Made by a program: the position numbers and the translations under genes. Positions 4,510-23,904 of a DNA stretch of 64,000 bases are shown here, piece after piece (positions within the stretch are counted from its first letter, which is position 1; each line of letters begins with the position of its first letter). A model generated the notes under the pieces. That model worked only from the letters and a program-made list of their open reading frames with translations. It was not told the DNA's origin and did no database searches. The stretch is from positions 74,748 to 138,747 of the forward strand of contig OZ242278.1 of NCBI GenBank assembly GCA_965207475.1, read 5' to 3'. Source of the DNA: Gammaproteobacteria bacterium (lineage in GTDB: Bacteria > Pseudomonadota > Gammaproteobacteria > UBA4575).

Positions 4510-4896
4510 ATGTTTAATCCACTTACCGTCCCATTTGGTTGTGTGATGCTGTACAACGTTGTCAAGCTGAAAGACCATGTATCAGAGGAGGATATACAAC
4601 TGGCATTGGGCGAGATGTGCAATGTGGTCAAGAACACATATGGCGATGACAAGGGCGGGTTTATCGGTGGGCAGGTATATAAGTTTGCTGGGTTTGTTTC
4701 AGATGAAGGCTCATTTGCTTCAAAGAACCAGACCGAGGATCACGTTGCGATTGTGACCTATTGGCAGTCTTTTGATCAGCATGAGCAGTCTCATGCAGAT
4801 GAAGTGTTCAGGGAGAAGTTTGAAGCCTTAAGCCAGTATGCAATTGAAACCTATGAAATCGGGTACCAGATGCTTTGGCAGGGAGAGCCAGATTAG
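4510..4896 (+). CDS. Small hypothetical protein, possibly ABM/dimeric alpha-beta-barrel fold
   Basis: 128-aa ORF (alternative start ATG 4546, MLYNVVKLKD). The 'VTYWQSFDQHEQSH' stretch resembles ABM-domain proteins. No stronger signature was found. Confidence 0.45.
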   Translation: MFNPLTVPFGCVMLYNVVKLKDHVSEEDIQLALGEMCNVVKNTYGDDKGGFIGGQVYKFAGFVSDEGSFASKNQTEDHVAIVTYWQSFDQHEQSHADEVFREKFEALSQYAIETYEIGYQMLWQGEPD

Positions 4897-4947
4897 CCGA
4901 CCAATTTCGTCCTGGTTGGCTATGGAAGTATACAGCTTGTTCTAGCT

Positions 4948-6327: not shown

Positions 6328-6768
6328 TTATATGCTAAATGTACCAGCAATTGTCATGAAAAGTACCAGATATTTGGGTGAGTCAGCTTGAGGGGAATGG
6401 TACCACCTGATCCGGAAGGAGGCGTTTCCAAGACCCGATATGCTGTAGTCTACGTTCCCAGACGCAGTCGAAATCGGTTCGCAGCTACCTGTGTGGAACT
6501 GAAAGAAAATGCTGAACATGCACAAGCTGCATCAGACCCTGGCAGCAAAAGATTCGCAGCAAAGGTGCTAGGTCCATCCAAGTCATCTGAAGGGCAAGTA
6601 ATTTACTACCTGCTGAAATGGTTATGATATGAGCTGCTGCATGTCATATAACCGGCTCAGCAGTGTTGTCTTTACCTGAAGTTAAGCCATGACAGTATAT
6701 GCTTAAAAGTAACTTGTGTACTTTCTTTCCGGAATTTCTGGAGGGCCTACCACTTTACAAAATGTGTT

Positions 6769-7815
6769 ATGACGCCAAGAAAAATTTCCAGGGTCAGAAT
6801 CACTGAATCTAATAAAATTATGTACATGAACAGCCCGCAGGTATATATCAAGGCACCAGCTCGCCTGCATCTAGGATTTCTGGATCTTGAGGGTAGCTTG
6901 GGAAGACGGTTTGGTAGCCTTGGGCTCACACTTGATGGGATTGCTACACGCATTGTTGCAAGGCGTGATAGTCATTTCAATGTGCTTGGCAAGCCTGATG
7001 AACGGGTGGTGAAACTAGCAGAAAGATTTTTTGAGATCAAAGGATTGCCCGGTGGCTGTGAAATTGAAGTGTTGGAGCAGATACCCGCCCATTCGGGGCT
7101 AGGTTCTGGAACTCAGCTTGCGCTTGCAGTAGGAACTGCGATTTCCAAGCTCTATTCACTTGGATTTCCCTGTGAGGATATTGCTGTTACCTTAGATCGA
7201 GGCAAAAGATCTGGAGTTGGAATCGGTGCATTTCAACAGGGTGGATTTCTGCTGGATGCAGGGAAAAATCAGAGCAATTTTATTCCGCCCATTGTATCGA
7301 GGATAGCATTCCCATCTAAATGGCGTGTGGTTCTCATCATGGATTCGGCTTCGCACGGCTTGTATGGAGATGATGAAAGCACTTCATTTTCTAGCTTACC
7401 TCCAGTCTCTTCTGATATAGCATCATACCTGTGCAGGTTGACTTTGATGCAAATTATGCCAGCAGTGTCAGAGCAGGATTTGGGTACATTCAGCAAAGGA
7501 ATTCATGACCTGCAGCGATGTATGAGTGATTTTTTCGCATCACAGCAAGGTGGACGTTATACTAGTCATGTGGTCGGAGATGCGATTGGTTACATAGAGT
7601 CGCTGGGAATTAAGGGTGTAGGGCAAAGCTCTTGGGGACCAATAGGATTTGCCTTTGTAGGCAGTGAGGAGCAGGCACTTGTACTGTTACGTGCCTTGCA
7701 GGAAGAGTTCAGGAAAAAGAAAGAATTACAATTCAAGATAGTTTCAGGGCGAAACACAGGAGCTGTGGTTCAGCAGCAAGGCACGGTATCTTTGCCTGCA
7801 GCAGCAAAATTCTGA
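6769..7815 (+). CDS. mptG: Beta-ribofuranosylaminobenzene 5'-phosphate (beta-RFAP) synthase, GHMP-kinase fold
   Basis: Motifs 'APARLHLGFLDLEGSLGRRFGSLG' and 'IPAHSGLGSGTQLALAVG'. The true start may be ATG 6820 or 6826 (MNSPQVYIKAP...). Confidence 0.8.
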   Translation: MTPRKISRVRITESNKIMYMNSPQVYIKAPARLHLGFLDLEGSLGRRFGSLGLTLDGIATRIVARRDSHFNVLGKPDERVVKLAERFFEIKGLPGGCEIEVLEQIPAHSGLGSGTQLALAVGTAISKLYSLGFPCEDIAVTLDRGKRSGVGIGAFQQGGFLLDAGKNQSNFIPPIVSRIAFPSKWRVVLIMDSASHGLYGDDESTSFSSLPPVSSDIASYLCRLTLMQIMPAVSEQDLGTFSKGIHDLQRCMSDFFASQQGGRYTSHVVGDAIGYIESLGIKGVGQSSWGPIGFAFVGSEEQALVLLRALQEEFRKKKELQFKIVSGRNTGAVVQQQGTVSLPAAAKF

Positions 7816-7892
7816 AAATTCAATACATGCGGGAACACACAGCTAATCGTGCAGGGTGATTAATTAATACAGAATAATTGCGAGAGGGAATA

Positions 7893-8795
7893 ATGGAAAA
7901 GCCACAAATTTTGCACATGATTACCCCGGCTAAGAATCTAAGCCCATTTGATGTGAATATGGCTCTAGATGCAGGGTGGGGTCATGCAGTGGGCTACACT
8001 TATGTTGAAAAAGAGGAGGTGCAAGGTCTGATCCAGGATGCAATTTTTTCTCGAGGGCCCGCTGGCGCGAAGCGAACCGGAGTGTTTTTAGGCGGGCGGG
8101 ATATGCATGTCGCAATGGAAATGTTGCAGATTTGCAAGGAATCAATGGTGCCACCTTTTGAAGCCTCCTGTTTCGCTGATCCCAGCGGTGCATTCACAAC
8201 TGCTGCAGGAATGGTGGCTTGTGTCGAGCATGCCCTTGAAGAAAAATTCAGTACGAGCCTCCAAGGGAAACAGGTTGTGATAATGGGAGGTACAGGTCCA
8301 GTGGGTTCTACGGCTGCTGTTTTGGCAGCCAATGCCGGGGCAATTGTATACATTCTTGGTCGAAACAAAGAAAAGTCTGAGAAAGTTGCTGCTTTGTGTA
8401 ATCGGGAGTATGGCCAGGGAACCACAGAAATTCGCGGGGAAGCGAACGAAGTGATACATGAATTAATGCAAAATACAGACGTAGTACTTGCCGCAGGTGC
8501 TGCTGGGGTGCAGCTTGTTTCTGCAAAAAATATTGAAAGTTCAAGTGAGCTGAAGGTTGCTGCAGATGTTAATGCTGTACCACCTTCAGGTGTTGCAGGA
8601 CTTGACGTGATGGGAAACTGTAAACCTATAGAAGGTTCAGGCAGTGGTGCAGTCGGTATTGGTGCACTGGTTATTGGTAATGTGAAATACCAGACGCAGC
8701 ATAGGTTATTGCAAAAAATGTGTGGTGCAGAAAAGCCGACATATCTGCACTTTGAGCATGCCTTCGAAACAGCAAGGGAGATTGCCCGGGAGTAG
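7893..8795 (+). CDS. mtdB: NAD(P)-dependent methylene-tetrahydromethanopterin dehydrogenase
   Basis: N-terminus MEKPQILHMITPAKNLSPFDVNMALDAGW and dinucleotide fold VVIMGGTGPVGS. GAGGGA lies upstream of ATG 7893; the ORF track starts at TTG 7878. Confidence 0.85.
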   Translation: MEKPQILHMITPAKNLSPFDVNMALDAGWGHAVGYTYVEKEEVQGLIQDAIFSRGPAGAKRTGVFLGGRDMHVAMEMLQICKESMVPPFEASCFADPSGAFTTAAGMVACVEHALEEKFSTSLQGKQVVIMGGTGPVGSTAAVLAANAGAIVYILGRNKEKSEKVAALCNREYGQGTTEIRGEANEVIHELMQNTDVVLAAGAAGVQLVSAKNIESSSELKVAADVNAVPPSGVAGLDVMGNCKPIEGSGSGAVGIGALVIGNVKYQTQHRLLQKMCGAEKPTYLHFEHAFETAREIARE

Positions 8796-8843
8796 AAGAT
8801 TTTTCTGGTTGTAGCCATCTCTGGCCGCGCTATTGCTGAATCC

Positions 8844-9920
8844 TTGAAAGCCTGTGGCTATTCTGTGGCTGTTGTTGACGGGTTTTGCGACATGGATACA
8901 TGTTCAGTTGCTGATGCCAGTCTAAAAGTGTCACGAAAAACATCAGGCCTGGATAGTAGTGAAACTCTCGAGGCTGTGCAGAATTTGCGTGACACGTACC
9001 ACCTGAAAGGTTTGTTTTACGATGCTGCCTTGGAGTTTGATCCCGACATGCTGGATGCTGTCTCATTTGACAAGGTCATGGGTAATTCAAGTGCTACTCT
9101 GCGAATGTGCAAAGATCCAGAAGTATTTTTTTCGGTACTTGATGCAAACCAAATTCCGTATCCAGAGATCAGTTTCAAGCCTGTACAGGGTGACGAAGAG
9201 CAATGGTTGTGCAAAAGGTCAAGGAGTGCAGGTGGTACTGGTGTCACTACATTGACTGGCCCTCAGGTACAGGACCAAGGATCTTACTATCAGCGGAAAT
9301 TAGAGGGCGTGCCTTTTTCATTGACATTCTTGTCTAATGGTCAAAACCTGCATGCATTGGGATTCAATACCTTGTGGTGCAGGGATGCCGCGCCCGGTAT
9401 GCCTTTCCTATACGAAGGGGCAATCAATCACGTCAATCTTACAGATGAACAACGACTCGCCGCTTTGGGTTATGCAACCAGCTTGGTTCATGAGTTTGAG
9501 TTGGTCGGATTAAACAGTATCGATTTTATTCTTTCAAATGGACATGTTTTCGTGCTTGAAGTAAATCCACGTATTCCTGCGACCTTTGAATTATATGAGA
9601 CCAGACAGGGTAGCCTGATAAGAAATCACATAGATGCTTGTGTGCATGCTAGACTCAACCCGGCACCGGGAAGAACAAAGTTGCATGCACATATTATCGT
9701 TTATTCTCCAGCCACAATGTGTGTCCCGAGCAGCTTTAACTGGCCATTATGGACAGCGGATCGGCCTCATCCAGGGGAAGTCATCCGTAAAAATGAACCT
9801 CTATGCAGTGTATTTGCTGGAGGTAAAAATGTGTCTCAGGCATGTACTGCAGTGTGGTCGCGCAAGCAAGTCATTTTGGACATGCTCATGCAGGCAGGAT
9901 CGAAATCTTTTAAATCTTGA
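8844..9920 (+). CDS. ATP-grasp protein of the H4MPT/methanofuran island; the start is probably upstream at a non-canonical codon (see finding)
   Basis: ATP-grasp C-terminal pattern 'GLNSIDFILSNGHVFVLEVNPRIPATFELYE'. The first ATG/GTG/TTG is TTG 8844, but a conserved-looking N-terminus is encoded from 8799. Confidence 0.75.
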   Translation: MKACGYSVAVVDGFCDMDTCSVADASLKVSRKTSGLDSSETLEAVQNLRDTYHLKGLFYDAALEFDPDMLDAVSFDKVMGNSSATLRMCKDPEVFFSVLDANQIPYPEISFKPVQGDEEQWLCKRSRSAGGTGVTTLTGPQVQDQGSYYQRKLEGVPFSLTFLSNGQNLHALGFNTLWCRDAAPGMPFLYEGAINHVNLTDEQRLAALGYATSLVHEFELVGLNSIDFILSNGHVFVLEVNPRIPATFELYETRQGSLIRNHIDACVHARLNPAPGRTKLHAHIIVYSPATMCVPSSFNWPLWTADRPHPGEVIRKNEPLCSVFAGGKNVSQACTAVWSRKQVILDMLMQAGSKSFKS

Positions 9921-9931
9921 AAAGAGAACTG

Positions 9932-10885
9932 ATGATGCAAAATGTAAGTATAAATCGGTTAGTAAAGCCGTTAGTTCAGGAACTGATAGACAAGAACAGC
10001 GCTTTGAGAGTTGAGGTAGGTGAATTCAGTAATGGTGCAAAATTCATCGACGCAGGAATAGGCTGCATCGGTGGTCTTGAAGCTGGCCGGGTCATAGGAG
10101 AAATTTGTATGGGAGGACTGGGAACGATAACACTGTATCATGCGACAGCTGTGAGTGACTGGCCACTTTCCCTTCATGTTCATTCATCCAATCCTGTCCT
10201 AGCATGTTTGGCAAGCCAGTATGCTGGCTGGAGCTTATCGTATGAAGAATTTCATGCTCTGGGTTCTGGGCCGGGCCGGGCAATTGCGCGTAAAGAGTCC
10301 CTATTTGATGATTTAGGTTATGAAGATACTTGCGACAGTGCAACATTTGTGCTTGAAGTGGACCGGGCTCCTCCGGTGGCGCTCATTGACCGAATTGCCG
10401 AAACATGCAAGCTGGTGCCAGAAGCGTTGACATTTATTCTAACACCTACCAGGTCCATTGCAGGAACCGTGCAGATTGTTTCCAGAGTGCTGGAAGTTGC
10501 TATGCACAAGGTTCATGTGTTGGGGTTTCCTCTTGACGATATCATGGACGGCTCTGCAAGCGCACCACTATCTCCACCAGCACCTGATTTTGTAAAAGCT
10601 ATGGAACGTACCAATACGACTATTCTGTTTGCCGGTAGAGTGCATCTATTTGTTCGTGGAGATGATGCAAGTGCTGAAAAACTTGCCAAGGAGCTTCCAT
10701 CCAGCTCATCTGCTGATTACGGCAAGCCCTTTGCAGGTATACTTGAAGACTGTGGATATGACTTTTTCAAAATTGATCCAATGTTGTTCAGCCCTGCATG
10801 GGTGGCAGTTACATCAGTTGAAAGTGGTCGAACCTTCCAAGGTGGTCAACTGGCCCCAGACTTGCTAGCAGATTCGTTCTCCTGA
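9932..10885 (+). CDS. mch: Methenyl-tetrahydromethanopterin cyclohydrolase
   Basis: About 317 aa from ATG 9932 (MMQNVSINRLVKPLVQEL...). Length and position next to mtdB fit Mch. The ORF track begins at TTG 9917, overlapping the previous stop. Confidence 0.85.
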   Translation: MMQNVSINRLVKPLVQELIDKNSALRVEVGEFSNGAKFIDAGIGCIGGLEAGRVIGEICMGGLGTITLYHATAVSDWPLSLHVHSSNPVLACLASQYAGWSLSYEEFHALGSGPGRAIARKESLFDDLGYEDTCDSATFVLEVDRAPPVALIDRIAETCKLVPEALTFILTPTRSIAGTVQIVSRVLEVAMHKVHVLGFPLDDIMDGSASAPLSPPAPDFVKAMERTNTTILFAGRVHLFVRGDDASAEKLAKELPSSSSADYGKPFAGILEDCGYDFFKIDPMLFSPAWVAVTSVESGRTFQGGQLAPDLLADSFS

Positions 10886-10888
10886 ACC

Positions 10889-11815
10889 ATGTCGCGTCAT
10901 ATCGCCATCATCACCGATGATCCTGGTTGGCATGGGCAGCAGTTGCGAAAGGCTTTTAATGCCAAAGGCTATCGCTGTACCAATGTTTCATTGAAGAGTT
11001 GTCATTTAGACACAGCACTGAAACCTTACGGTTTGTGTATTCCTGGATTTGAAGGATCTTTACCTTCCGGCGTATTTGTCCGAGGTGTACCCGGCGGCAC
11101 CTTGGAAGAAGTTGTGTTTTATCTGGACATATTGCATGCAATGCGCGAACTCAATGTATTTGTATATAACGAAGTACGTGCAATAGAACGGAGCGTCGAT
11201 AAAGGAATGACGAGTTTTCTGCTTAGTCAAGCAGGAATTTCTACACCTCCTACATGGGTAGGCAACAACATTCATGATGCATATGCCTTTATTCGAAAAC
11301 AGTTAGGATCAGGGCATAAGGTAGTTTTGAAGCCTCTATTTGGTTCACAGGGTAAAAATTTGCAACTGATTACTGGGCATAGTGATTTTGCAGATTTTAC
11401 TCTTTACAACAACCTGTTTTATTTGCAGAGATATATAGAAACTGGTTCAGAAGGTGCTCATGATTGGAGGTTGCTCGTCATAGGGGAACGAGTAGTTGCA
11501 ATGATGAAAAGACAGGGAAGCGGCTGGATTTCCAATGTAGCAACAGGCGGAAAATGTATTCCTGCAGTCTTGGATGAGAAGTTTACAGGGCTGGCGAAGA
11601 GTGCTGTAAAGGCAGTCGATATGCATTATGGTGGTGTGGATGTTATGCGTGGTGACTGCGGAACTCTCTGGGTAACTGAAGTAAACAGCATTCCAGCATG
11701 GAAAGGTCTGCAAAGTGTGAGCCAGATAGATGTTTCGGAGATGCTGGTTGAGCATTTCCTGTGCAGTCTGCAGCAATATTCTGATTTCACGTGCTCAGAC
11801 AAGATTGGAGGTTGA
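10889..11815 (+). CDS. RimK-type ATP-grasp ligase (tetrahydromethanopterin:alpha-L-glutamate ligase-like)
   Basis: 308 aa. N-terminus MSRHIAIITDDPGWHG, plus 'VVLKPLFGSQGKNL' and 'GVDVM....LWVTEVNSIPAWKG', typical of the RimK family. Starts 3 nt after mch. Confidence 0.8.
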   Translation: MSRHIAIITDDPGWHGQQLRKAFNAKGYRCTNVSLKSCHLDTALKPYGLCIPGFEGSLPSGVFVRGVPGGTLEEVVFYLDILHAMRELNVFVYNEVRAIERSVDKGMTSFLLSQAGISTPPTWVGNNIHDAYAFIRKQLGSGHKVVLKPLFGSQGKNLQLITGHSDFADFTLYNNLFYLQRYIETGSEGAHDWRLLVIGERVVAMMKRQGSGWISNVATGGKCIPAVLDEKFTGLAKSAVKAVDMHYGGVDVMRGDCGTLWVTEVNSIPAWKGLQSVSQIDVSEMLVEHFLCSLQQYSDFTCSDKIGG

Positions 11816-11831
11816 GAAGGGATTGCACATA

Positions 11832-11839
11832 TAAAATAA
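11832..11839. repeat. Target-site duplication, left copy (TAAAATAA)
   Basis: Identical octamer lies immediately outside both IRs (second copy at 16141-16148). Confidence 0.85.
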
Positions 11840-11864
11840 GGGGCTTATATACAAAAGTTACCGG
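11840..11864. repeat. Terminal inverted repeat (transposase 3'-proximal end): GGGGCTTATATACAAAAGTTACCGG
   Basis: 24/25 match to the reverse complement of 16116-16140. The transposase stop codon abuts it. Confidence 0.9.
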
Positions 11865-12794
11865 CTACTTAGTTAAGTCCCTATACTTCAATCGCTTGCC
11901 TTCCATGCCCCTAACAACTCTAGCCATTTGGTCAGGAGTATCCAGTTCCCTGATGTTATAGCGACCAGCAAATTCCTGGACGTAACGGTTCAGGTGCTTT
12001 TCTGACACATGGTGATAAGTACCGTGGTAGCCTCTTTTAAATATTGCCCAGAAAGATTCAATTCCATTTGTGTGTGCCTGGTCTCTCACGTACTCAGAAA
12101 CAGAATGCTTGACGGCTGTGTGTCGGTACTTCTTCTTCAGTGTCCTGTAACCACGATGGTCGTCAGTATAGACAGTTGATTCTTCCTGTACTGACTTCTC
12201 CACAAACTCACCAAGTGTTTTGCTATTTACCTTGTTGATGGGTTGAGCCACGATCTTGCCATTACGCTGTTTGGCTCCAACAACCGGATGCTTGTCCACT
12301 GGCCCACGACCGATTTTCTTGCGCTTGCTGGCATGCTTGTTCTTATCCTTTCCACCGATGTAGGTTTCATCAATTTCAACAACACCTTGAAGTTTCAAAT
12401 TACCAATGTCGAAAGCCTCACGGATGCGCTGTAGCATGAACCAGGCAGATTTTTGTGTGATGCCAAGTTCCCTGTGCAGCTTCAAGCTGCTGACACCTTT
12501 CAATCCGGTTGTAGCCATGTAGATCGCGATGGCCCAGTGCTGTAGCTTAATCTTGCTGCCTTCCATGATTGAGTCTTTACGGACACTGAAGAACTGCCTG
12601 CAATCCTTACAACGATACTTCATTGTTTTGTGCGTGGTATGGGTGTGATTGGCAGAACCACAATCAGGACAGACTGGGCCATCCGGCCAGCGTTCCTGCT
12701 CAAGCCACCGTTCTGCTGCATTATCGTCAGGGAACCTTTCTAGTAACTCAAAGATTGTCAGACCCTTGCGATATGATTTACCCGGACCAGCCAT
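11865..12794 (-). CDS. IS1595-family transposase (zinc-ribbon + DDE)
   Basis: 309 aa. N-terminal zinc ribbon CPDCGS...CKDCRQFF, a helix-turn-helix region, and the motifs IDETYIGG, VYTDDHRGY and HTNGIESFWAIFKRG. Appears intact. Confidence 0.9.
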   Translation of the reverse strand: MAGPGKSYRKGLTIFELLERFPDDNAAERWLEQERWPDGPVCPDCGSANHTHTTHKTMKYRCKDCRQFFSVRKDSIMEGSKIKLQHWAIAIYMATTGLKGVSSLKLHRELGITQKSAWFMLQRIREAFDIGNLKLQGVVEIDETYIGGKDKNKHASKRKKIGRGPVDKHPVVGAKQRNGKIVAQPINKVNSKTLGEFVEKSVQEESTVYTDDHRGYRTLKKKYRHTAVKHSVSEYVRDQAHTNGIESFWAIFKRGYHGTYHHVSEKHLNRYVQEFAGRYNIRELDTPDQMARVVRGMEGKRLKYRDLTK

Positions 12795-12821
12795 TTTCTT
12801 TCCTCTGTTTGGTTATAGTAG

Positions 12822-12834
12822 GGTAACTATAGTA
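12822..12834. repeat. Internal IR-like half-site (GGTAACTATAGTA) upstream of the transposase start
   Basis: 12/13 match to the inner part of the right IR (16118-16130, GGTAACTATTGTA). The outer tip is not conserved. Confidence 0.4.
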
Positions 12835-13182
12835 CCTGAAATAAAACCAGAGGTAAACAAATTTTATTATAGTATCAGATTATTTTATGGAATAATTATC
12901 TCCTCACTCAAGTGAGGCACTTCCCACATTATTTTCCTGCGTTTAAGAAAGTACTTGTCATTGAATGACTAGCTGAATTACAATTCCGCTTGTCAACTCT
13001 ACTAAGACCCCGAAGCCGGGTTATCTGCCGAATGCAATACCATTCGAGCATGGTAAATAGGCTAAATTTTCTTTGTTCTGTGGAAACAGGCAGAGACTCC
13101 ACTTTCTTAGTAGACGTTGACAAATGGCCCGGCACCTATGGCGTGCCGGAAAGTTGATGTCTACTTGAAGAGGGAGTGTGAA

Positions 13183-15162
13183 ATGAAGCCTATTTCTATT
13201 CTTATAATCTTGCTGTTTGCCTTCACGTTGGCTGCGTGTGGAGGTGGGGGAAGCAGCGGTCCTGCACCGATGGCACCAGAAGAACCGATGGAGCCTATGG
13301 AGCCGGAACCTACCCCTGAAGAACAGGCTGCAGCAGACGCTGCGATGAAGGCTGCAAATGATGCGGCAACTACTGCAAATGCAGCAGCTATGGCAGCAAT
13401 GGATGCCGTAAATGCCGCTACTCTGGCAGACTCTATGGCAGCAAGTGATGCTGCAACCGCTGCAACAGCAGCCGCCCAAGCTGCAACAGCAGCCGCAACA
13501 GCGGTGATGGCTGGTGACATGGCAACAGTGGATGCCGCCAATGCCGCAGCAATGGCCGCTAATGATGCTGCAGATGCTGCAAACATGGCTGCGTCGGACC
13601 TGAACATGGCGGAAGCAGATGCTCAAGCAGAAGCGGAACGAATGGCCGCAGCCGAGCAAGCCCGTATCATGGGTCTGACTGCAGCAATTGCTGACCCGGA
13701 TGGTGACGGTATGGTTCCTGAATCAGGTGAATTACATCACAGGAATCGACCAAGTGCAGCAATCACATTCGATGATGACATGATTGTAGTGGGTGGCGAC
13801 ACGCTTCGGAAAAATGACACCAACATCAAAAATGACTACGAGTTTGGCAATACGCCTGCTGCTGCAGAGATCGAGTTGCCAGGCTTTGATGGAGCAGTCT
13901 ATCGGCGCACCACCGAAAAGGGTGCCATGGATACAGTGACAGTCTACACAGATGTTGAAGAAGCTGGTGATGTACTGTTCAACGATTTTTTCATCGCAAC
14001 AGGAGATGATGGGGCACAAACTGATGATGCCGATGGCTTCACAGTAACCGACGTTACCGATGCTCAACAAACTGCAGCGGGAGAGGATGGGGAAACCCAG
14101 TACGACATGATCACCTTTGCAGCCAATGTAAGTCCAGCTGCCAAACATATCATGAGTTCCAGAATTCCAACTACACCAGGAACAAATGTAATAGAGCCTA
14201 CGGTATCAAGAGGCACGGGTACAGGTGGTGCAGACGAACTCATTTATGTATTTACCGGGAGTTTTTACGGAGTATCTGGAACATTCAGATGTGCTAGTGC
14301 TTGCGTAATCACCTTGGGTAGTGGTGAAGATGACGTCTTTACAGTGGTTGATGGTGTCTCTGGCACTCCTGGCCCTGTTGTACTGACTTTCCGACCTGAA
14401 AACACAGTTAATGATACCGAGGATCAACTCGTAGTTGCTGGCGTCACTAAGGATGATGACTACATGGCATTCGGATACTGGATGCAGACCAGTGGAAGCG
14501 GTGACAATATGAAATATGGTGTAGGCGTTTTCGAAGATGGAGCCATGCCGTATGGCGGTGCTACTGCGAGCACGGAAATTCAACAACTGACTGGCAAGGC
14601 CACGTATGATGGCTCTGCCACTGGAATGTATGCCAGGAAAGAACTCACTGTACAGGATGGTAGAGCCGTAGTGGGGAATCCAGTGGATGCAGGTCAGTTT
14701 TCTGCGGATGTAAGCCTGACCGCTTATTTCAATAATGTGATAACAGTCGCTGACGCAACCGTCGCAAACATTGATTCCATTTCCAACGCCCAAAGGTTCT
14801 CCATCAGTGGCACAGTAGACAACTTCCAAGATGCCAGCGGGGATATGATTGATTCAGGCTGGTCGGTCAATCTCGGCAAGGCCAGCTTCGCTACATTTGC
14901 TAATGATGGAACTATTAGTGCCGCCACGAACAGTTTTTCTGGCAGTACCGGAAGTGGAAGCATGGTGGGTGAATGGGAAGGCACATTTTATGGCGATGCA
15001 GCAGACAAGGTCGCAGCTGACTTTACCGACATAACCGGGGGTCAGACTGCTGCACAACAAGCAGCAACTGCAAATGCCACCAACTACCCAACGAGTGTCG
15101 CTGGTGAATTCACCGGCCACTTTACAAACGGTCACGTAATCGGCGCGTTTGGCGCAAAGTGA
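13183..15162 (+). CDS. TbpB-like surface lipoprotein with an Ala/Met-rich low-complexity N-terminal region (IS passenger)
   Basis: GGGAG lies upstream of ATG 13183. Signal peptide with lipobox (MKPISILIILLFAFTLAAC) followed by GGGGSSG. C-terminal barrel-type motifs DYMAFGYW, GKATYDGSATGMYA, GEWEGTFYGDAA, VAGEFTGHF and VIGAFGAK. The ORF track starts at TTG 13117. Confidence 0.8.
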   Translation: MKPISILIILLFAFTLAACGGGGSSGPAPMAPEEPMEPMEPEPTPEEQAAADAAMKAANDAATTANAAAMAAMDAVNAATLADSMAASDAATAATAAAQAATAAATAVMAGDMATVDAANAAAMAANDAADAANMAASDLNMAEADAQAEAERMAAAEQARIMGLTAAIADPDGDGMVPESGELHHRNRPSAAITFDDDMIVVGGDTLRKNDTNIKNDYEFGNTPAAAEIELPGFDGAVYRRTTEKGAMDTVTVYTDVEEAGDVLFNDFFIATGDDGAQTDDADGFTVTDVTDAQQTAAGEDGETQYDMITFAANVSPAAKHIMSSRIPTTPGTNVIEPTVSRGTGTGGADELIYVFTGSFYGVSGTFRCASACVITLGSGEDDVFTVVDGVSGTPGPVVLTFRPENTVNDTEDQLVVAGVTKDDDYMAFGYWMQTSGSGDNMKYGVGVFEDGAMPYGGATASTEIQQLTGKATYDGSATGMYARKELTVQDGRAVVGNPVDAGQFSADVSLTAYFNNVITVADATVANIDSISNAQRFSISGTVDNFQDASGDMIDSGWSVNLGKASFATFANDGTISAATNSFSGSTGSGSMVGEWEGTFYGDAADKVAADFTDITGGQTAAQQAATANATNYPTSVAGEFTGHFTNGHVIGAFGAK

Positions 15163-15378
15163 CTAAATGAACACCAGCCCGGTTCGTATGATTTTCCGGG
15201 TTGCTGTGCTCTCAAGAGACTAGACATCGCTTGAGGCTCCAGTCGTACCAGCCAGAACTAACACTGACTGGTACGACATTTACATAGGAACAGGGGCATT
15301 TGTTGAATTTGCTAAATCCTGCCTTTGCCCCTTCATCGTGAGAAACAACCCCCACGAAAGTTGGTTCTCACACCACGG

Positions 15379-15404
15379 CCAAGCCCCTTCGGGGGCTTGG
15401 TTTT
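15379..15404 (+). terminator. Rho-independent terminator downstream of the lipoprotein gene
   Basis: CCAAGCCCC-TTCG-GGGGCTTGG (9-bp GC-rich stem) followed by TTTT. Confidence 0.7.
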
Positions 15405-15466
15405 CTTGCAGTTTACATGCTGTAACCAGAGAGCAATCCGTTTACTATTTTTATGGAGTATATTGA

Positions 15467-15766
15467 ATGGCCGTTTCCGATAGAAAGAAAGTCATTATCA
15501 GAACCAATATCTTAACCTTGATGTTGCTCGCTTATACTGCAGTACTGATAGTATTCTTGGTATTAGTTTGGTGTACCGAAATGTCAACAGGAGATGTGTG
15601 GAACTGTGTAGAAGCCCCGCTGATGGCCCTCATTGGAGGAACACTTGCAATCTCGAAAGATCTTGTTAGTCCTGATGAATCAGATCCCAACCAAGAGGGA
15701 AATAATGGAATAACTCCAAGCCCCCAACCCAACCAACAAGGGAGCACCAATAATCCCAATCCATAG
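15467..15766 (+). CDS. Small two-helix membrane protein with a Pro/Asn/Gln-rich tail (IS passenger), no recognisable family
   Basis: 99 aa. GGAG lies 8 nt upstream of the ATG. Hydrophobic stretches ILTLMLLAYTAVLIVFLVLVW and APLMALIGGTLAI. Tail PNQEGNNGITPSPQPNQQGSTNNPNP. Confidence 0.5.
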   Translation: MAVSDRKKVIIRTNILTLMLLAYTAVLIVFLVLVWCTEMSTGDVWNCVEAPLMALIGGTLAISKDLVSPDESDPNQEGNNGITPSPQPNQQGSTNNPNP

Positions 15767-15970
15767 GAGAATTAAATCTATATCTTCACTCATCTTCATT
15801 CACCTCGCCAATTCACATTCGATGTTTTATTGTCTATTGGTATATTATAGTTTACTAATATTCTGCTTGGCTACAGCTTCCAGTTGGTAGAATAATCTCC
15901 CAAATAATCTTGTTTAGATTTCTACATTAGGTAGGTAGTATAAGGAAAGTAGCCTGCATGGAATCTAGAC

Positions 15971-16099
15971 ATGAAGAAAGCTAAACGTGGCCGTCCTGAG
16001 ACCCGCAAGATAAAGATTGAAGCTAGTCCTGAATATGCTGTGAAGGCAATCTTCGCAGCAGGGAAACTACCTAAGAAAACGAAGCAGAAGAAGGACTAG
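15971..16099 (+). CDS. Candidate 42-aa basic small ORF next to the right IR
   Basis: ATG 15971 to TAG 16097-16099 translates to MKKAKRGRPETRKIKIEASPEYAVKAIFAAGKLPKKTKQKKD. It is below the ORF-track size cutoff and has a weak RBS. Confidence 0.25.
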   Translation: MKKAKRGRPETRKIKIEASPEYAVKAIFAAGKLPKKTKQKKD

Positions 16100-16115
16100 G
16101 TATGCCGGGTGCCGT

Positions 16116-16140
16116 CCGGTAACTATTGTATATAAGCCCC
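16116..16140. repeat. Terminal inverted repeat (distal end): CCGGTAACTATTGTATATAAGCCCC
   Basis: Its reverse complement matches 11840-11864 at 24/25 positions. Confidence 0.9.
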
Positions 16141-16148
16141 TAAAATAA
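16141..16148. repeat. Target-site duplication, right copy (TAAAATAA)
   Basis: Identical to 11832-11839. Confidence 0.85.
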
Positions 16149-16345
16149 GTCTTTGTCGGGATAGTGCTCCAAGCATTGATACTGCTAAATCTTCATCTAC
16201 AGGTAAGGGGAGTTCAAGGCTTATCACCAGAGGTTCGCAAGTTGCATCCTGTGATCTTGTTTCGAGGAATCCCACAAATCTGTTTCCCCCTGCTTTGCCA
16301 GCAAATACTTGAATTCTTGTCGCAATTTCAACATTACTTCTCACG

Positions 16346-17200
16346 ATGGATGACCTGACTTCCCGCTGTGCAGCCTTAGCAAAACTGTATCGGCATGCAT
16401 GCTGGGTCGATATACATGCACTGAAACCGGGCAATACAGGAATCCACTCCATGAACCCATCCCCTAGTGTTCAGGAATTCTTGTGCAGTGCCGAAGTTAG
16501 CGCCCCACCTCTGACAGCGCCTGGCTTGACGTTGGGAGCACGGATATTGCAGGCGGTACAAGCCACACAGACGATGGTTGGCACGAATACGAATCTAGGA
16601 ATCATACTGCTCATAGCACCTATGGTTCAGGCTTCTCTGAGCAAGGAAACAGTGTCTGGTTATGCTGATTTGTTGGCAGAAGTTCTGCTGCGGTCAACAG
16701 TAGAGGATGCAAGAAATGTGTATGAGGCAATCAGAACAGCAAAGCCAGGAGGGCTTGGACATAAAAAAACCCAGGATATACTTGAAGAACCTACTGTAAC
16801 TCTTTTAGATACAATGAAAATTTCTTCTTCATGGGACAGTGTTGCCAGGCAGTATTCAAGTAATTTCCAAGATATACTTGATTTTGGTGTACCACGGTTT
16901 AAGGATTTGATGGAGCGGTGGAACGATGAATGCTGGGCTGCAACGGGGCTGTATATCGGTTTCCTGGCAAGATTCCACGATAGTCTGATTGAACGGAAAT
17001 ACGGCATATTAAAAGCTCGTGCAATTAGTGATATGATCTCCCCGCTTGAAAAGGAATTCTATAGTTCGGATTCGCCAGTCAGGTATAAGGCTCAATTGCT
17101 GGAAATTGATGATCTGCTGAGGCGTGATCATATTAATCCGGGAACTACAGCGGACCTGACTGTGGCTAGTATCTTTGCAACTGGGCTAGGTATGTTGTAA
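16346..17200 (+). CDS. Triphosphoribosyl-dephospho-CoA synthase (CitG/MdcB)-family protein of the H4MPT island
   Basis: 284 aa. 'DIHALKPGNTG', 'GTNTNLGIILL' and 'INPGTTADLTVASIF' resemble CitG/MdcB-family motifs. Its position between the RimK-like ligase gene and fae matches known methylotroph islands. Confidence 0.7.
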   Translation: MDDLTSRCAALAKLYRHACWVDIHALKPGNTGIHSMNPSPSVQEFLCSAEVSAPPLTAPGLTLGARILQAVQATQTMVGTNTNLGIILLIAPMVQASLSKETVSGYADLLAEVLLRSTVEDARNVYEAIRTAKPGGLGHKKTQDILEEPTVTLLDTMKISSSWDSVARQYSSNFQDILDFGVPRFKDLMERWNDECWAATGLYIGFLARFHDSLIERKYGILKARAISDMISPLEKEFYSSDSPVRYKAQLLEIDDLLRRDHINPGTTADLTVASIFATGLGML

Positions 17201-17203
17201 GTA

Positions 17204-17212
17204 TGGTATAAT
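17204..17212 (+). promoter_or_regulatory. Putative extended -10 promoter (TGGTATAAT) for fae
   Basis: Perfect TATAAT preceded by TGn, located 86 nt upstream of the fae ATG and just after the preceding stop codon. Confidence 0.4.
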
Positions 17213-17297
17213 TCGGCGCTGCTAGCGTGATCCAACAGGGTACAAGCGGACCTGTGGTCTGCAGTTATCGACAATAAAATGAAACAGGAGAACTATA

Positions 17298-17825
17298 ATG
17301 GCATTGATTAACAAAGTAATGGTCGGGGAGTCGCTCGTTAACGATAACGATCCTTCCGGCACAATGGCAGAAATCGCACATATTGACTTATTGATTGGTC
17401 CGCGTGGCTCTGCTGTTGAGACTGCTTTTTGTAATGGCTTGGTTAATAATAAGGACGGCTTTTCCACTTTGCTGGCTGTAATTGCCCCTAATTTACCTTG
17501 TAAGCCAAACACTATGATGTTCAACAAGGTTACAATCAAAGGTGCAAATCAAGCAGTACAGATGTTTGGTCCTGCACAGATGGCAGTAGCAAAGGCTGTA
17601 GCGGACAGTGTTGAAGATGGGACTATCCCTGCGGATGAAGCAGATGATGTGTTCGTATGTGTAGGAGTTTTCATTCATTGGGAGGCCAAGGACAATGCGG
17701 CGATCTATGAAAACAACTACAAGGCAGTGAAGGAATCACTGGCACGTGCGATAAAAGATGAGCCTAAGGCTTCTGCAGTTGTTGCCCAGAAGGACAGCGC
17801 GGAGCATCCATTCAAAGGCTTCTGA
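17298..17825 (+). CDS. fae: Formaldehyde-activating enzyme (5,6,7,8-tetrahydromethanopterin hydro-lyase)
   Basis: 175 aa. Contains [14 protein letters not shown]...[12 protein letters not shown]...[18 protein letters not shown]. Strong RBS (AGGAGA) upstream and a strong terminator downstream. Confidence 0.92.
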
Positions 17826-17850
17826 TCTCAATTTTGAGAAAGGCTATGAA

Positions 17851-17882
17851 AATGCCCCGCAATTGCGGGGCATTTTTTTTGG
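17851..17882 (+). terminator. Rho-independent terminator of fae
   Basis: AATGCCCCGC-AATT-GCGGGGCATT followed by a T-run of at least 8. Confidence 0.85.
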
Positions 17883-17895
17883 TGGACGTGTTTGT

Positions 17896-17904
17896 TGATA
17901 TAAT
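17896..17904 (+). promoter_or_regulatory. Putative extended -10 promoter (TGATATAAT) for the PTPS-fusion gene
   Basis: TGnTATAAT lies between the fae terminator and ATG 17952. It overlaps the TTG used by the ORF track, which argues for the later ATG start. Confidence 0.35.
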
Positions 17905-17951
17905 TGGATAAACGATGTGCAGATGGACCAAATCAACAGCTGGGGTTATAC

Positions 17952-19172
17952 ATGCAGTGCCTTGATTGTCGAAAAGATGTAGGCAGTCGATTGACAAATG
18001 AGCATCTCCTAGCATGCAGCGGATTGACGCTGCAAGAGTACGCATTACGCCATCATCTGCCTTTGGACATGATTCTTAGCACGGATCAGATAAATCAGGC
18101 AGATGACATTTCTTTGTACCGCAAACCGGGAAGAAGTGTGAACAAGCTGGCGCTGGATGTTCTTGCAGGTTTGGAGATGGCACGGGCACTCAAGCAGCAT
18201 GGTGAGTTTACAATCGTATCATTGGGCATACGCAGGCTAGAGCAATTGCTATGGTATCTGGAATCGTTGTGCTCTTTGGGGTTTCAGTTCAGACAGGAAT
18301 ATGCATATGAAGATTCCACACACCGTGTCATCGCCAAGAACAGCTTGAAAATTCCAAGTGCATGGTTGGCTTCACAAATTGAGCAGTCTTCTACAGGGTC
18401 ATTTCTGCAGCGCCTGTCCATACTAGTTGCTCATATCGGCGAAATACATGCAGGGTATCTATTTATAGACTTTCCAGAGAGCAAGGATGCGATCAGGATA
18501 AGTGATCATTTGGAAAGAAATTTTCATATCCATTTGAAGCATTTGGATGCTTCGAAACATGAAAACGGCATACTGGCAAGGTGCAAGACTCGAACAGACT
18601 CGTCTTGTTTACTGAGTCTAGTCAAAGAGTATCTGGAAAACATACCGGTTGCAAAAGACAGGTTTTTTGAAAAATACGATCAGGCTACAGTGGTCAAGGA
18701 ACTGGTGTTTGATTCGGCCCATTTTATTACTGACCATCCTGGTAAATGTGCGAATTTGCACGGCGGTCGCTATGCCATGAGGGTCAAAGTCAGGGATCAA
18801 ATTGATCCACTTACGGGTTTTGTCGTGGATTATGGACACTTGAAACAAACAGTCAGCCGGAAAGTGATAGCAAAACTTGATCACCAAACACTGAATTATG
18901 TTACTGCTGGCTTGAGTTGGCGTTCCAGCACTGAGTTACTTACCGTTTACATATGGGAAAATCTGATTGAATACCTGCCAGGCCTGACTGAATTGCAAAT
19001 ATTTGAAACAGACAGGTCGTACTGCAGTTACACCGGCCCCAAACTACATGAACTGCAAAAACGTGGACAAAATGTCTTGCTGGATTATTTCTCGTCAGAC
19101 AACTTGGGCAAGTCGGGCTTGAGGTGGCTGTTACATCAGGACATGCGGGAAAGACTGAAAGTTATCGGTTGA
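17952..19172 (+). CDS. Two-domain protein: uncharacterised ~240-aa N-terminal domain fused to a 6-pyruvoyl-tetrahydropterin synthase (PTPS/QueD)-fold domain
   Basis: C-terminal 'VFDSAHFITDHPGKCANLHGGRY...GFVVDYGHLK...LDHQTLNYV...FETDRSYCSY' matches the PTPS/QueD pattern. The N-terminal part (MQCLDCRKDVGSRLTNEHLLAC...) is not recognisable. Confidence 0.7.
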   Translation: MQCLDCRKDVGSRLTNEHLLACSGLTLQEYALRHHLPLDMILSTDQINQADDISLYRKPGRSVNKLALDVLAGLEMARALKQHGEFTIVSLGIRRLEQLLWYLESLCSLGFQFRQEYAYEDSTHRVIAKNSLKIPSAWLASQIEQSSTGSFLQRLSILVAHIGEIHAGYLFIDFPESKDAIRISDHLERNFHIHLKHLDASKHENGILARCKTRTDSSCLLSLVKEYLENIPVAKDRFFEKYDQATVVKELVFDSAHFITDHPGKCANLHGGRYAMRVKVRDQIDPLTGFVVDYGHLKQTVSRKVIAKLDHQTLNYVTAGLSWRSSTELLTVYIWENLIEYLPGLTELQIFETDRSYCSYTGPKLHELQKRGQNVLLDYFSSDNLGKSGLRWLLHQDMRERLKVIG

Positions 19173-19869
19173 ATTCCTGCAGCTCATTCCTGGTGATTGA
19201 TTTTTTGTGCAGTGCAGTGGAAAGTAATGCGCCTGCAGCACCTATTTTTTCCAACTGCAGCAAATCAGCATAATTTCTGATACCGCCACCGTAAAATATA
19301 TTGTGTTTTTCAAATAAATCATGCTGGTTGGGGATCGTTGGAAAGTCGACGCCCATGCAAGTACCTACATTGTCAAGATTAAGCACTACAACATCAGGAG
19401 GCCATGACCCCTTGTCCTGTATGATTTCCTGTGAGCCAATCAAGGTATTAGTTCTGAAGTCTACAGAAAGCAAGAACTGGTGATTCCGATAATTCGTTCT
19501 AAGCATGCTGAAAGTTGAAGCAGAGAGCATCGATTCAGTTGAAAGGATTATCCTCAGCAAGCGACAGTTCAGCCTATCTAGGTAGAGGCTGATTAAAGAA
19601 AGTCCAGTATCCAGCCATATTTCAAGTTCTGGAAATTCGGAAATTATTTTCTGAATGACCCGAGAGTTATCCCCCTGATTTTCAATGGCATCAAGGTCTG
19701 CTATATAAAGTTTTTGAAAGCAGTGAAGCTCTAAATAGCTGTGAACTATTTCTACTGGATTTGCTGATGGGCATAAGGAAGACTGTATTGGCCTATAATG
19801 ATTCCGGTTGCCGTTCTTTGCATGCACTACCAAACCTTTGGAGAGGTCTAGTACCGGAATAATTTGCAC
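19162..19869 (-). CDS. HisA/HisF-family (beta/alpha)8-barrel protein of the H4MPT island
   Basis: 235 aa. 'MQIIPVLDLSKGLVVHAKNG', 'LYIADLDAI' and 'IFYGGGIRNYADL' are typical of HisA/HisF-like barrels. Confidence 0.75.
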   Translation of the reverse strand: MQIIPVLDLSKGLVVHAKNGNRNHYRPIQSSLCPSANPVEIVHSYLELHCFQKLYIADLDAIENQGDNSRVIQKIISEFPELEIWLDTGLSLISLYLDRLNCRLLRIILSTESMLSASTFSMLRTNYRNHQFLLSVDFRTNTLIGSQEIIQDKGSWPPDVVVLNLDNVGTCMGVDFPTIPNQHDLFEKHNIFYGGGIRNYADLLQLEKIGAAGALLSTALHKKSITRNELQEFNR

Positions 19870-19880
19870 TGTGGGTTAAG

Positions 19881-20876
19881 GTGAATATTCTAGTTTTTGA
19901 GTATACCACTGGTGGAGGTATGCAGGGCCATCCCCTGCCATATTCATTGGCCAGGGAAGGTGAAATGATGCTCCAGGCTGTAGTCAGAGATTTTCTTCAG
20001 CTGCCTGGCTTAAGGATTTCAACTCTTAGGGACAGGAGAATAGGTAACAGTGTGCCAGGTACCAATACGGTATTCGTAGAACATACAGAGCACTACATGC
20101 AGAGACTCGAAGAGCTCGCACAGGATATGGATGCGTTGCTGGTTATTGCACCTGAAAATGATGGCATCTTGTTATCGATCTGTGAAAGATTTTCAAGTCA
20201 TTGTCCAGTTCTGTTCAACTGCGAGGCAGAAACAATAAAACTGACCAGCAACAAATATTCGACTTATCAGTACCTGCAAACCCAGGGTGTTCCACTGATA
20301 CCGACATGCCTTGCAGAAGATTCTCGGTATCTGGAAGGTGAACAATTTGTGATGAAACCTGTTGATGGTGTTGGGTGTGACAGAATATCTCTATTCAGGA
20401 ACAAGTCTGAGCTACAGGTGGCCTCAGTACGTGCTGACCGGAGTCACTTTATTGTCCAGCCCTATGTTAAGGGTATTCACGCAAGTTTGAGTCTGCTGTG
20501 TTTGCACGGAGAATGTTTGATAATGAGCTGCAATCAACAGCACGTTTCTGAAACAAATGGTCGGTTACAATGGCTTAAATGCAATGTAAATGCCTTTGAG
20601 AGAGACAGATTTATACCATTTGCTACCAAGCTAGCTAGGGTATTGCCTGGACTGCAGGGTTATGTGGGTGTCGATATTGTAATTTCTAACGAAAAAATTC
20701 TGTTGGTTGAAATCAACCCCAGGTTGACAACATCGTATGTGGGCCTTAGTGCGGCTTTGCATGTAAACCCTGCAGAGTTGATCTTGAAATGTTTTCGAGA
20801 AGAGATATTGCCGGATACGATCCCTGTTAGCGCTACTGCAGTTATGGTTGATTTGGAGGTATACGCTGTTGTATGA
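19881..20876 (+). CDS. ATP-grasp ligase, MfnD-like (tyramine--L-glutamate ligase-like)
   Basis: GTG start. N-terminus VNILVFEYTTGGGM and C-terminal 'GYVGVDIVISNEKILLVEINPRLTTSY'. Confidence 0.7.
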   Translation: MNILVFEYTTGGGMQGHPLPYSLAREGEMMLQAVVRDFLQLPGLRISTLRDRRIGNSVPGTNTVFVEHTEHYMQRLEELAQDMDALLVIAPENDGILLSICERFSSHCPVLFNCEAETIKLTSNKYSTYQYLQTQGVPLIPTCLAEDSRYLEGEQFVMKPVDGVGCDRISLFRNKSELQVASVRADRSHFIVQPYVKGIHASLSLLCLHGECLIMSCNQQHVSETNGRLQWLKCNVNAFERDRFIPFATKLARVLPGLQGYVGVDIVISNEKILLVEINPRLTTSYVGLSAALHVNPAELILKCFREEILPDTIPVSATAVMVDLEVYAVV

Positions 20877-21918
20877 AAGTGTACTAGGCTGGGATATTGG
20901 TGGGGCACATCTAAAGGTAGCCGAGGCTGTTGGTACTACGCAAATTTCCAGGGTGTATCAGGTACCTTGTGAGTTATGGCGTGGCTTGGACCAAATGAAT
21001 TTTTCAATTGATTTTCTCAAGCATCGATTTGATGTATCAAAAGCCTTGATAGCAATCACTATGACAGGTGAAATGGTGGATGGTTTCACCAGCCGCAAGG
21101 AAGGTGTACGAAGAATTATTGGTGAAGTTGAGAAAATCTTCAGCAATATGAAAGTTTCCTATTTTGCTGGAGAAAGCGGGTTCTTGGGCGCCGGATCGGC
21201 GAAAAGCAGTTACTTGCAAGTTGCTTCGGCAAATTGGCTGGGAAGTGCAGCTTTTGTTGCATCCCAGGTAGAGGATGCGCTTTTTTTGGATATAGGGAGT
21301 ACGACCACAGATATTGTAGCCGTTAAAAATAATCGGGTTATGAACGAAGGACGCACAGATTCTGAGAGATTGTACACACAGGAGATGGTTTATTGCGGTG
21401 TAGTACGAACACCAGTTTTCGCGCTGTGCAGAGCCGCACCTGTTGGAAACCGGCTCATCCCAGTTATAAATGAATATTTTTCTAATGCTGCTGACCTGTA
21501 TAACTTAACGGGAGAGTTGCCGAGCTGGGCAGATATGTGCAGAACTCCAGACAATCGAGGAGCTGATGACGGATCCTGTGCAGCTCGTTTGGCAAGAACA
21601 TTTGGATACGATTCAGTGCCGGAAGACTTGACCATGTGGCGAGAAGTTGCAGAGTACATACGTGGGCAACAGATCCAGACAATAATTAACGCATGTCGGA
21701 AACGCTTGTCTAGGCTGGGACCGTCTCTTGAGATTCCGATAATTGGTGGGGGTGCAGGACGGTTTCTTGTGAAAGAAATTGCACAACGTCTGAACCGGCA
21801 GTACGTGGATGCTGCTAGCTTGTTTGAATTTGAAAGCAAGAAAAAGGGTTTTGATCCAGGAGCTTGTGCACCTGCCGCATCCATTGCCTGCTTAGGTTTT
21901 CAGAGATTCTGCAGATGA
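20848..21918 (+). CDS. Hydantoinase/oxoprolinase-like H4MPT-linked C1-transfer pathway protein (MfnF-like)
   Basis: 356 aa. 'LGWDIGGAHLKVAEA' and 'FLDIGSTTTDIV' are ASKHA-fold phosphate motifs. Alternative start TTG 20869. Confidence 0.7.
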   Translation: MIWRYTLLYESVLGWDIGGAHLKVAEAVGTTQISRVYQVPCELWRGLDQMNFSIDFLKHRFDVSKALIAITMTGEMVDGFTSRKEGVRRIIGEVEKIFSNMKVSYFAGESGFLGAGSAKSSYLQVASANWLGSAAFVASQVEDALFLDIGSTTTDIVAVKNNRVMNEGRTDSERLYTQEMVYCGVVRTPVFALCRAAPVGNRLIPVINEYFSNAADLYNLTGELPSWADMCRTPDNRGADDGSCAARLARTFGYDSVPEDLTMWREVAEYIRGQQIQTIINACRKRLSRLGPSLEIPIIGGGAGRFLVKEIAQRLNRQYVDAASLFEFESKKKGFDPGACAPAASIACLGFQRFCR

Positions 21919-23306: not shown

Positions 23307-23904
23307 AATTGGTGGCAGCTTGTATGAAAGCAGGTACCTCAAGGAGTGGCTGGAAATTCTCGATGTTTGCCATGCACACCAACTTGTGATTGTTCCGGGA
23401 GGAGGTCCGTTCGCTGAAATGGTGCGTACTGCCGATAGACAATTCAATCTGGACGCTACACATGCACATAATATGGCGGTTCTGGGCATGCAGCAATTTG
23501 CATACATGATGGCATCACTGTCTCCTAGCATGTGTTTGGCTAACTGCATGGAACAGATCAGGTGTTGCTGGAACGATAAGAGGGTAGTTATTTGGGAGCC
23601 TTATAACATGGTAAGCCAACATTGCAGGTTCGAGAGAACGTGGGACGTGACATCAGACAGTCTTGCTGTTTGGCTGGCAGAGTATTTGTCGATCAAACAG
23701 GTCTTGTTTGTCAAATCTGCACCGATAACACTCTCACAAACGACAATTCCTGAGCTACAAGTGCATAATTGCATAGACCCTGTGTTACCAGGTCTGTTAG
23801 CTGATTTGGATATCAGGGCGCACTTCATGCACAAGTCAAAGGCAAAAAAATTCAGGACGTTGATTCAGAAAAATTCTGAAAACTTGACCGATACTCAGTT
23901 TTGA
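23284..23904 (+). CDS. Amino-acid-kinase-fold protein of the methanofuran/H4MPT island (MfnE-like)
   Basis: 206 aa. N-terminal 'VVKIGGSLYES' and 'VIVPGGGPFA' are typical of the aspartate/glutamate/uridylate kinase fold. Overlaps the end of pabB. Confidence 0.6.
   Translation: MSMPWVVKIGGSLYESRYLKEWLEILDVCHAHQLVIVPGGGPFAEMVRTADRQFNLDATHAHNMAVLGMQQFAYMMASLSPSMCLANCMEQIRCCWNDKRVVIWEPYNMVSQHCRFERTWDVTSDSLAVWLAEYLSIKQVLFVKSAPITLSQTTIPELQVHNCIDPVLPGLLADLDIRAHFMHKSKAKKFRTLIQKNSENLTDTQF

Follow-up and report, generated by a model that had tools for sequence, protein, structure and literature searches.

We analysed a 64,000-nucleotide stretch of DNA (hereafter the window) from a gammaproteobacterium of the UBA4575 lineage, which corresponds to positions 74,748 to 138,747 of contig OZ242278.1 (assembly GCA_965207475.1). 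Within the window, a tetrahydromethanopterin (H4MPT) one-carbon (C1) gene cluster contains a 4.3-kb segment with the features of an insertion sequence (IS) of the IS1595 family. Pfam searches verified the neighbours that an earlier note, made from the letters alone, had named on either side of this segment: a RimK-like gene (10889-11815) to the left, and CitG (16346-17200) and Fae (17298-17825) to the right. The insertion lies 16 bp past the RimK-like stop codon and breaks no coding sequence. Between two terminal inverted repeats (IRs), the segment holds a transposase gene, a lipoprotein gene and two small open reading frames (ORFs) (Table 1). The earlier note had counted at least two passengers; passengers are present, but the count is corrected to three ORFs besides the transposase (659, 99 and 42 amino acids), the shortest of which probably belongs to the IS itself and is not cargo.

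Table 1. Positions of the element, its ends and its internal features in the window (TSD, target site duplication).
Feature	Position	Strand	Description and evidence
Left TSD copy	11832-11839	none	8 bp, TAAAATAA; direct read; single copy in the L081 empty site
Whole element	11840-16140		4301 bp; IS1595-family unit between two 25-bp terminal IRs
Terminal IR adjoining the transposase stop codon	11840-11864	+	GGGGCTTATATACAAAAGTTACCGG; direct read, degenerate search
Transposase gene	11865-12794	-	IS1595-family DDE transposase, 309 amino acids, apparently intact; Pfam, NCBIfam, alignment
Internal copy of the inner IR motif	12820-12834	+	GGTAACTATAGTA; putative operator, 25 nt upstream of the transposase ATG
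Lipoprotein cargo gene	13183-15162	+	659 amino acids, HpuA/TbpB-like; lipobox, AlphaFold2, Foldseek, weak Pfam match
Second hairpin	15242-15277	+	-21 kcal/mol, z -3.75
Intrinsic terminator	15377-15408	+	GGCCAAGCCCC-UUCG-GGGGCUUGGUU then UUUCUU; -23.4 kcal/mol, z -3.4; 3' of the lipoprotein gene
99-amino acid ORF	15467-15766	+	Hydrophobic stretches, probably a membrane protein; ORF call, comparison with L083
42-amino acid ORF (orf42)	15971-16099	+	Basic; core RGRPETR..KI.A.PEY..K.IFAAGK; reads outward to the IR
Distal terminal IR	16116-16140	-	GGGGCTTATATACAATAGTTACCGG on the minus strand; direct read, degenerate search
Right TSD copy	16141-16148	none	8 bp, TAAAATAA; direct read; L081 flank alignments

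The left IR and the reverse complement of the right one are identical at 24 of 25 positions, and a degenerate search allowing up to three mismatches found only two sites in the window, which are the two element ends; the same pattern produced no match in 100 shuffles. Immediately outside the IRs, the octamer TAAAATAA is repeated perfectly on the two sides, forming an 8-bp target site duplication (TSD). The repeat agreement and the flanking octamer had both been claimed in the earlier note, and both were recovered on re-reading. The IR tip, GGGGCTTATATAC, is similar to the GGGAATTATATAC tips of clade relatives. Base composition was indistinguishable between the element and its flanks. Scans of the window with Rfam and for tRNA genes were empty, and thus there is no tRNA or integrase-type island signature.

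The transposase matched PF12762 (DDE_Tnp_IS1595, ISXO2-like; 9.2e-44) over positions 1-153 of the 153-position profile, PF12760 (Zn_ribbon_IS1595; 1.6e-12) and NCBIfam NF033547 (IS1595 family transposase; 1e-57, 195.5 bits against a cut-off of 75), which places it inside the family to which it had been assigned by eye. Re-reading the ORF recovered every motif named at that time, CPDCG...CKDC, IDETYIGG, VYTDDHRGY and HTNGIESFW, and the stop codon (11865-11867) directly abuts the left IR as described. In an alignment with 33 homologues, D142 (IDETY), D211 (YTDD), E246 (NGIESFW), K253 (seven residues after the E) and E274/R278 were invariant. The element therefore has the DDE domain, zinc ribbon, 8-bp TSD and short terminal IRs by which the IS1595 family is recognised, and its transposase is predicted, from what the family does, to be the autonomous mover of the whole unit.

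Transposase identity reached at most 61% in a set of species-representative genomes, a level at which the element would receive a new IS name. In plasmids it reached at most 47%, and because these matches are both distant and generically labelled 'IS1595 family transposase', no named IS can be assigned from them. Exact look-ups of the window's transposase and lipoprotein sequences returned no record of either as a called gene. The closest described subgroup is presumably ISNwi1, which is characterised in ISfinder by DDEK and E-x3-R ('ER4') residues and ends of the form ggnnatTAT; its passenger-carrying members, listed as ISNwi1+, span about 1.75-4.75 kb. The present element has D142/D211/E246/K253, E274/R278 and the tips GGGGCTTAT and GGGAATTAT.

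The earlier note had predicted that deleting the element in silico would recreate an empty site that could be found in related genomes. Removing the element together with one copy of the duplication gave GGATTGCACATATAAAATAAGTCTTTGTCGGG, and the identical string, with a single TAAAATAA, is present in L081, a 2.0-Mb contig from ENA whose CitG-like homologue is 98% identical to that of the window. By blastn, positions 1-9804 of L081 correspond to window 2037-11840 and positions 9796-20855 to window 16141-27201, at 98.6% identity; the 9 nt at L081 9796-9804 are shared by the alignments of both flanks. A second relative, the 1.87-Mb contig L082, is roughly 85% identical (82% for the CitG-like homologue). 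Both relatives have the gene order of the window (Mpt_N, ATP-grasp, MCH, RimK-like, CitG, Fae, PTPS and onward), with a RimK-like/CitG gap of about 215-221 bp (221 bp in L081), and the element is absent from both. Because L081, at 98.6% identity, still has the empty site, the insertion at this locus is, on these alignments, recent, as had been claimed.

The element also occurs at a second place. In L083, a 394-kb scaffold from a Gammaproteobacteria metagenome genome, a transposase 96% identical to that of the window (P0241; MDE0412093.1) lies in a 4208-bp copy bounded by IRs at 6748-6772 (GGGGCTTATATACAATAGTTACCGG) and 10931-10955 (its partner) and by the perfect TSD TTTGCAAT. The neighbourhood, sarcosine-oxidase and glycine-cleavage genes, is unrelated to the window locus. 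This copy splits a gene for a haloacid dehalogenase (HAD)-type hydrolase, and deleting the element with one TSD copy restores an uninterrupted ORF of 251 amino acids. The two copies share their gene order (42-amino acid ORF, 99-amino acid ORF, lipoprotein, transposase), and outside the lipoprotein gene their backbones are 96-100% identical over most of their length. Two independent insertions of the unit at unrelated loci, each with its own TSD, show that it moves as one piece, which upholds the proposal that the whole unit had transposed. The two transposase genes differ at 45 nucleotides, of which about 29 are concentrated in two 100-bp patches (12086-12185 and 12686-12785), a distribution that suggests mosaic recombination among IS variants.

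Relatives of the element were collected in a transposase survey of 80 loci from species-representative genomes, many of them uncultured marine lineages and some with sponge-symbiont names. Elements with GGGAATTATATAC-type tips and a perfect 8-bp TSD ranged from 1119 bp (L039) to 6518 bp (L027 and L028); perfect 8-bp TSDs were also found in L086 (4389 bp, CAATTTAC), L091 (3173 bp, TTAGTATA) and about 17 further relatives of 1.1-6.5 kb, so cargo carriage appears normal in the clade. The 21 perfect TSDs collected have a mean of about 17% G+C, which suggests a target preference for AT-rich sites. The cargo differs from element to element, being an N6/N4 methyltransferase-HNH gene in L085 (transposase 81% identical) and a Dam-like methyltransferase gene in L091 (77% at the nucleotide level). 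The canonical order, seen in L091, L085 and L001, is repeat, promoter, transposase, cargo, orf42, repeat.

Upstream of the transposase gene lies an internal copy of the inner IR motif (Table 1), overlapped by a candidate -10 box (TACTAT, 12829-12834, minus strand), with a candidate -35 box (TTTACC) at 12852-12857. L083, L085 and L091 have the inner-IR motif at the equivalent position, and 7 of 39 relatives contain a perfect 9-mer repeat of their own inner motif. In the window, the 15-mer match is statistically weak, with three mismatches and two equally good chance matches elsewhere. We considered and rejected a reading of this motif as the decayed inner end of an ancestral 1-kb IS: in L091 it is equally far from the ATG and has an intact repeat just upstream, which makes it an internal feature, and the window match is itself weak. 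An operator-like site is the more plausible reading, with putative promoter and operator roles.

The main cargo is a lipoprotein with the lipobox LAAC|G and an N-terminus of MKPISILIILLFAFTLAAC-GGGG, in which C19 is near-invariant among 44 family members. An AlphaFold2 model (predicted local distance difference test, pLDDT, 79) consists of long Ala-rich N-terminal helices, a beta handle and a C-terminal barrel whose eight strands lie between residues 472 and 658, mostly at pLDDT >85. The top Foldseek match in the PDB was HpuA of Neisseria meningitidis (9mr0; E 1.7e-5, probability 1.0), with a low TM-score, the query being multidomain; the next match had an E of 0.18. The Pfam HpuA match was weak (6e-6) and under the curated cut-off, and a profile search of the PDB with the lipoprotein family found nothing significant, so the HpuA link comes from fold comparison only. 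The family is small: of the candidates scored from a 5.8-billion-sequence database, 45 proteins reached E <=1e-5.

Surface lipoproteins that depend on Slam, such as TbpB, LbpB, HpuA and fHbp, have a C-terminal eight-stranded barrel and a handle domain (PMC5449769). On L087 and L088, contigs measuring about 2.0-2.15 Mb, two paralogues of the cargo, P0248 and P0252, adjoin SlipAM/TPR_Slam genes and TbpB_B_D-like lipoprotein genes. By the features described for these proteins (lipobox, handle and barrel, Slam linkage of paralogues), the cargo is most likely a Slam-dependent surface lipoprotein, and the position of its paralogues beside Slam translocon genes suggests that it is probably displayed on the surface via Slam. 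It shares with this class the variable handle and HpuA as top structural match, and differs from it in a sequence similarity that stays under Pfam thresholds, in its long Ala-rich helical N-terminal region and in being carried on an IS.

The lipoprotein gene is also the most variable part of the unit. Despite their 96-100% identical backbones, the lipoprotein bodies of the window (13232-15250) and L083 (7683-9461) are only 31% identical, and the divergence has sharp boundaries, one directly after the signal peptide (about 13232-13311) and the other where the gene ends on its 3' side (about 15152-15250). Such a pattern is better explained by exchange of a cassette, or by very strong diversifying selection, than by uniform divergence. 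In L086 (4924-9312), a cassette 89% identical in nucleotides to window 12853-15404 is housed in another IS1595 backbone, with different repeats, a frameshifted transposase and its own TSD. The presence of the window's cassette in this other backbone indicates that the cargo module has moved between IS backbones. A block comprising the 5' untranslated region (5'UTR) and signal peptide is common to the paralogues of L087, L088 and L089 at 78-87% nucleotide identity, and beyond it their bodies diverge.

Three of these paralogues are clustered in L089 (7810-9357, 10001-11578 and 14948-16483) beside toxin-antitoxin-like HipA/helix-turn-helix (HTH) genes; their 5'UTR and signal-peptide blocks are 84-87% identical in nucleotides to window 12961-13280, with divergent bodies. 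L089 and L082, the roughly 85% relative, come from the same contig. A further paralogue, in L090, adjoins a distant IS1595 transposase (41%) that lacks the clade's repeat tips, and was not counted as the same association.

The two small ORFs are better conserved than the lipoprotein and matched no Pfam family. Compared with their L083 counterparts, the 99-amino acid ORF is 100% identical in amino acids and differs at one synonymous position, and orf42 is likewise 100% identical, with four synonymous differences. Homologues of orf42 (42-45 amino acids, core invariant) lie just inside one repeat and read outward in L083 (6788-6916), L085 (10256-10387), L091 (3025-3159) and L001 (8250-8435), and the ORF is kept even where transposase identity between elements is only 61-81%. 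Its position beside one repeat and its conservation in the nearest relatives suggest that orf42 is probably an IS-associated accessory gene rather than cargo, apparently undescribed in this IS subclade. Short IS-end derivatives, each with a repeat tip and a degenerate orf42-like sequence, were seen in L087 (about 4300-4520), L088 (4223-4445) and L089 (436-466). Those in L087 and L088 lie between Slam and lipoprotein genes and, with another repeat-like end at a distance of about 220 bp, resemble miniature inverted-repeat transposable elements (MITEs).

We conclude with high confidence that 11840-16140 is one autonomous IS1595-family transposable unit with passenger genes, a 'transporter IS', and that it was recently inserted. 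In the mechanism we propose, the DDE transposase, with its zinc ribbon and DDE(K) core, would recognise the two near-identical 25-bp IRs, as expected from the biochemistry of the family; the whole 4301 bp moved as one unit into an AT-rich octamer downstream of the RimK-like gene, generating the 8-bp duplication. The unit brought with it a hypervariable HpuA/TbpB-like lipoprotein gene that has its own promoter region and terminator, along with the 99-amino acid ORF for a probable membrane protein.

Three other accounts of the locus were weighed. Only the ~1-kb core (11840 to about 12845) might be mobile, the lipoprotein gene and small ORFs being resident DNA that ends at a solo IR; an IR-like motif does lie 25-50 bp upstream of the transposase ATG, and minimal relatives of about 1.1 kb exist, such as the 1119-bp L039. 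We regard this as highly improbable, given that the empty sites in L081 and L082 miss the full 4301 bp and not 1 kb, that L083 has the full unit elsewhere, flanked by a separate duplication, and that the internal motif is without a repeat tip and is also found inside the canonical L091. Nor does it seem likely that IRs and cargo were misjoined by the assembler. Metagenome assemblies are often broken or misjoined at IS elements, and the contig L084 stops inside this same element, but the same gene order with its near-identical backbone was assembled independently in L083, and both window junctions equal the empty site base for base around a clean duplication, which leaves a chimera barely credible.

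A comparison of occupied and empty sites gives by itself no direction of change, so the element could instead be ancestral here and have been precisely excised in L081 and L082. We consider this very unlikely: relatives at two distances (98.6% and about 85%) both lack the element and have gaps of similar size, the repeats and duplication are unworn, and precise excision that leaves one copy of the duplication is rare for DDE elements. A recent insertion of the whole unit thus remains our preferred account. Several observations weigh against this account or the role we assign to the cargo. There is no second copy of the element in the 64-kb window, and two IR-pattern scans of metagenome contigs from the Joint Genome Institute (JGI) gave no matches and so no extra copies. 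In the window and L083, the promoter-transposase module has the opposite orientation to the end made up of cargo, orf42 and repeat, and the transposase stop codon abuts a repeat, unlike in the canonical L091, L085 and L001. For the lipoprotein, no Slam gene lies within the window, and the link to Slam comes from paralogues in other genomes.

Members of the IS1595 family that carry passenger genes have been described before, as 'transporter IS' (Siguier, Gagnevin & Chandler 2009, cited in PMC3129680). The present element resembles them in its transposase with a zinc ribbon and DDE_Tnp_IS1595 domain, its 8-bp TSD and its passengers unrelated to transposition; these passengers lie inside the IRs, and the unit is found at different sites with separate TSDs. 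It differs in the inverted arrangement just described. Its repeats starting GGnn.tTAT, its DDE(K) and E-x3-R residues and its length of 4.3 kb would fit the ISNwi1 subgroup and the ISNwi1+ size range. In composite transposons such as Tn10 and Tn5, too, passenger genes are moved between terminal inverted sequences by an IS-encoded transposase, but here a single transposase gene lies between simple repeats of 25 bp, and there are no two full IS copies at the flanks. The type of element is therefore already known; what is distinctive is the unusual, fast-diverging cargo and the completeness of the evidence.

The earlier note had also placed hairpins and a terminator on the coding strand of the C1 cluster. 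Two such structures were found there, one of them a canonical terminator (Table 1); a hairpin after orf42 lacked significance (z 0.04). Upstream of CitG, about 200 bp of the native sequence is left. Co-transcription of the RimK-like, CitG and fae genes, if it existed, would probably be interrupted at the terminator, which makes polarity on CitG and fae plausible. The surrounding island (window 2037-27201, equivalent to L081 1-20855) is a complete-looking H4MPT/methanofuran-type C1 cluster with Mpt_N, MCH, Fae, PTPS, ATP-grasp ligases, 4HFCP synthase and DUF447. Its host lineage consists of Gammaproteobacteria with chromosomes of about 2 Mb, and its gene order is kept in two relatives. The remainder of the window (27000-64000) holds housekeeping genes (class II tRNA synthetase, SdhA, Mfd, CcmF/CcmH, MoeA, acyl-CoA dehydrogenase), and neither a further IS or repeat tip nor a tRNA or Rfam match was found there.

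Taken together, the occupied site, its exact empty counterpart in a nearly identical genome and the further copy at another locus show that 3.3 kb of extra DNA is moved as a unit by an IS1595-family element. For annotation, this means that three ORFs inside the H4MPT/C1 cluster are foreign and that the cluster may be transcriptionally split. More broadly, cargo-carrying IS1595 elements appear to be common in uncultured, largely marine lineages, and at least one lineage spreads a fast-diverging lipoprotein, predicted to be on the surface, that could affect host interaction. A tentative joint reading, which we think somewhat doubtful, is that ISNwi1-like transporter IS serve as vehicles for a hypervariable Slam-type lipoprotein family in apparently sponge-associated, small-genome Gammaproteobacteria, with the ~300-nt 5'UTR/signal-peptide block and the conserved 3' end acting as recombination handles and orf42 as an undescribed IS accessory. 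If this were true, lipoprotein bodies would be swapped among IS-borne copies, different IS backbones and a chromosomal Slam locus, and the whole would amount to a mobile surface-variation system.

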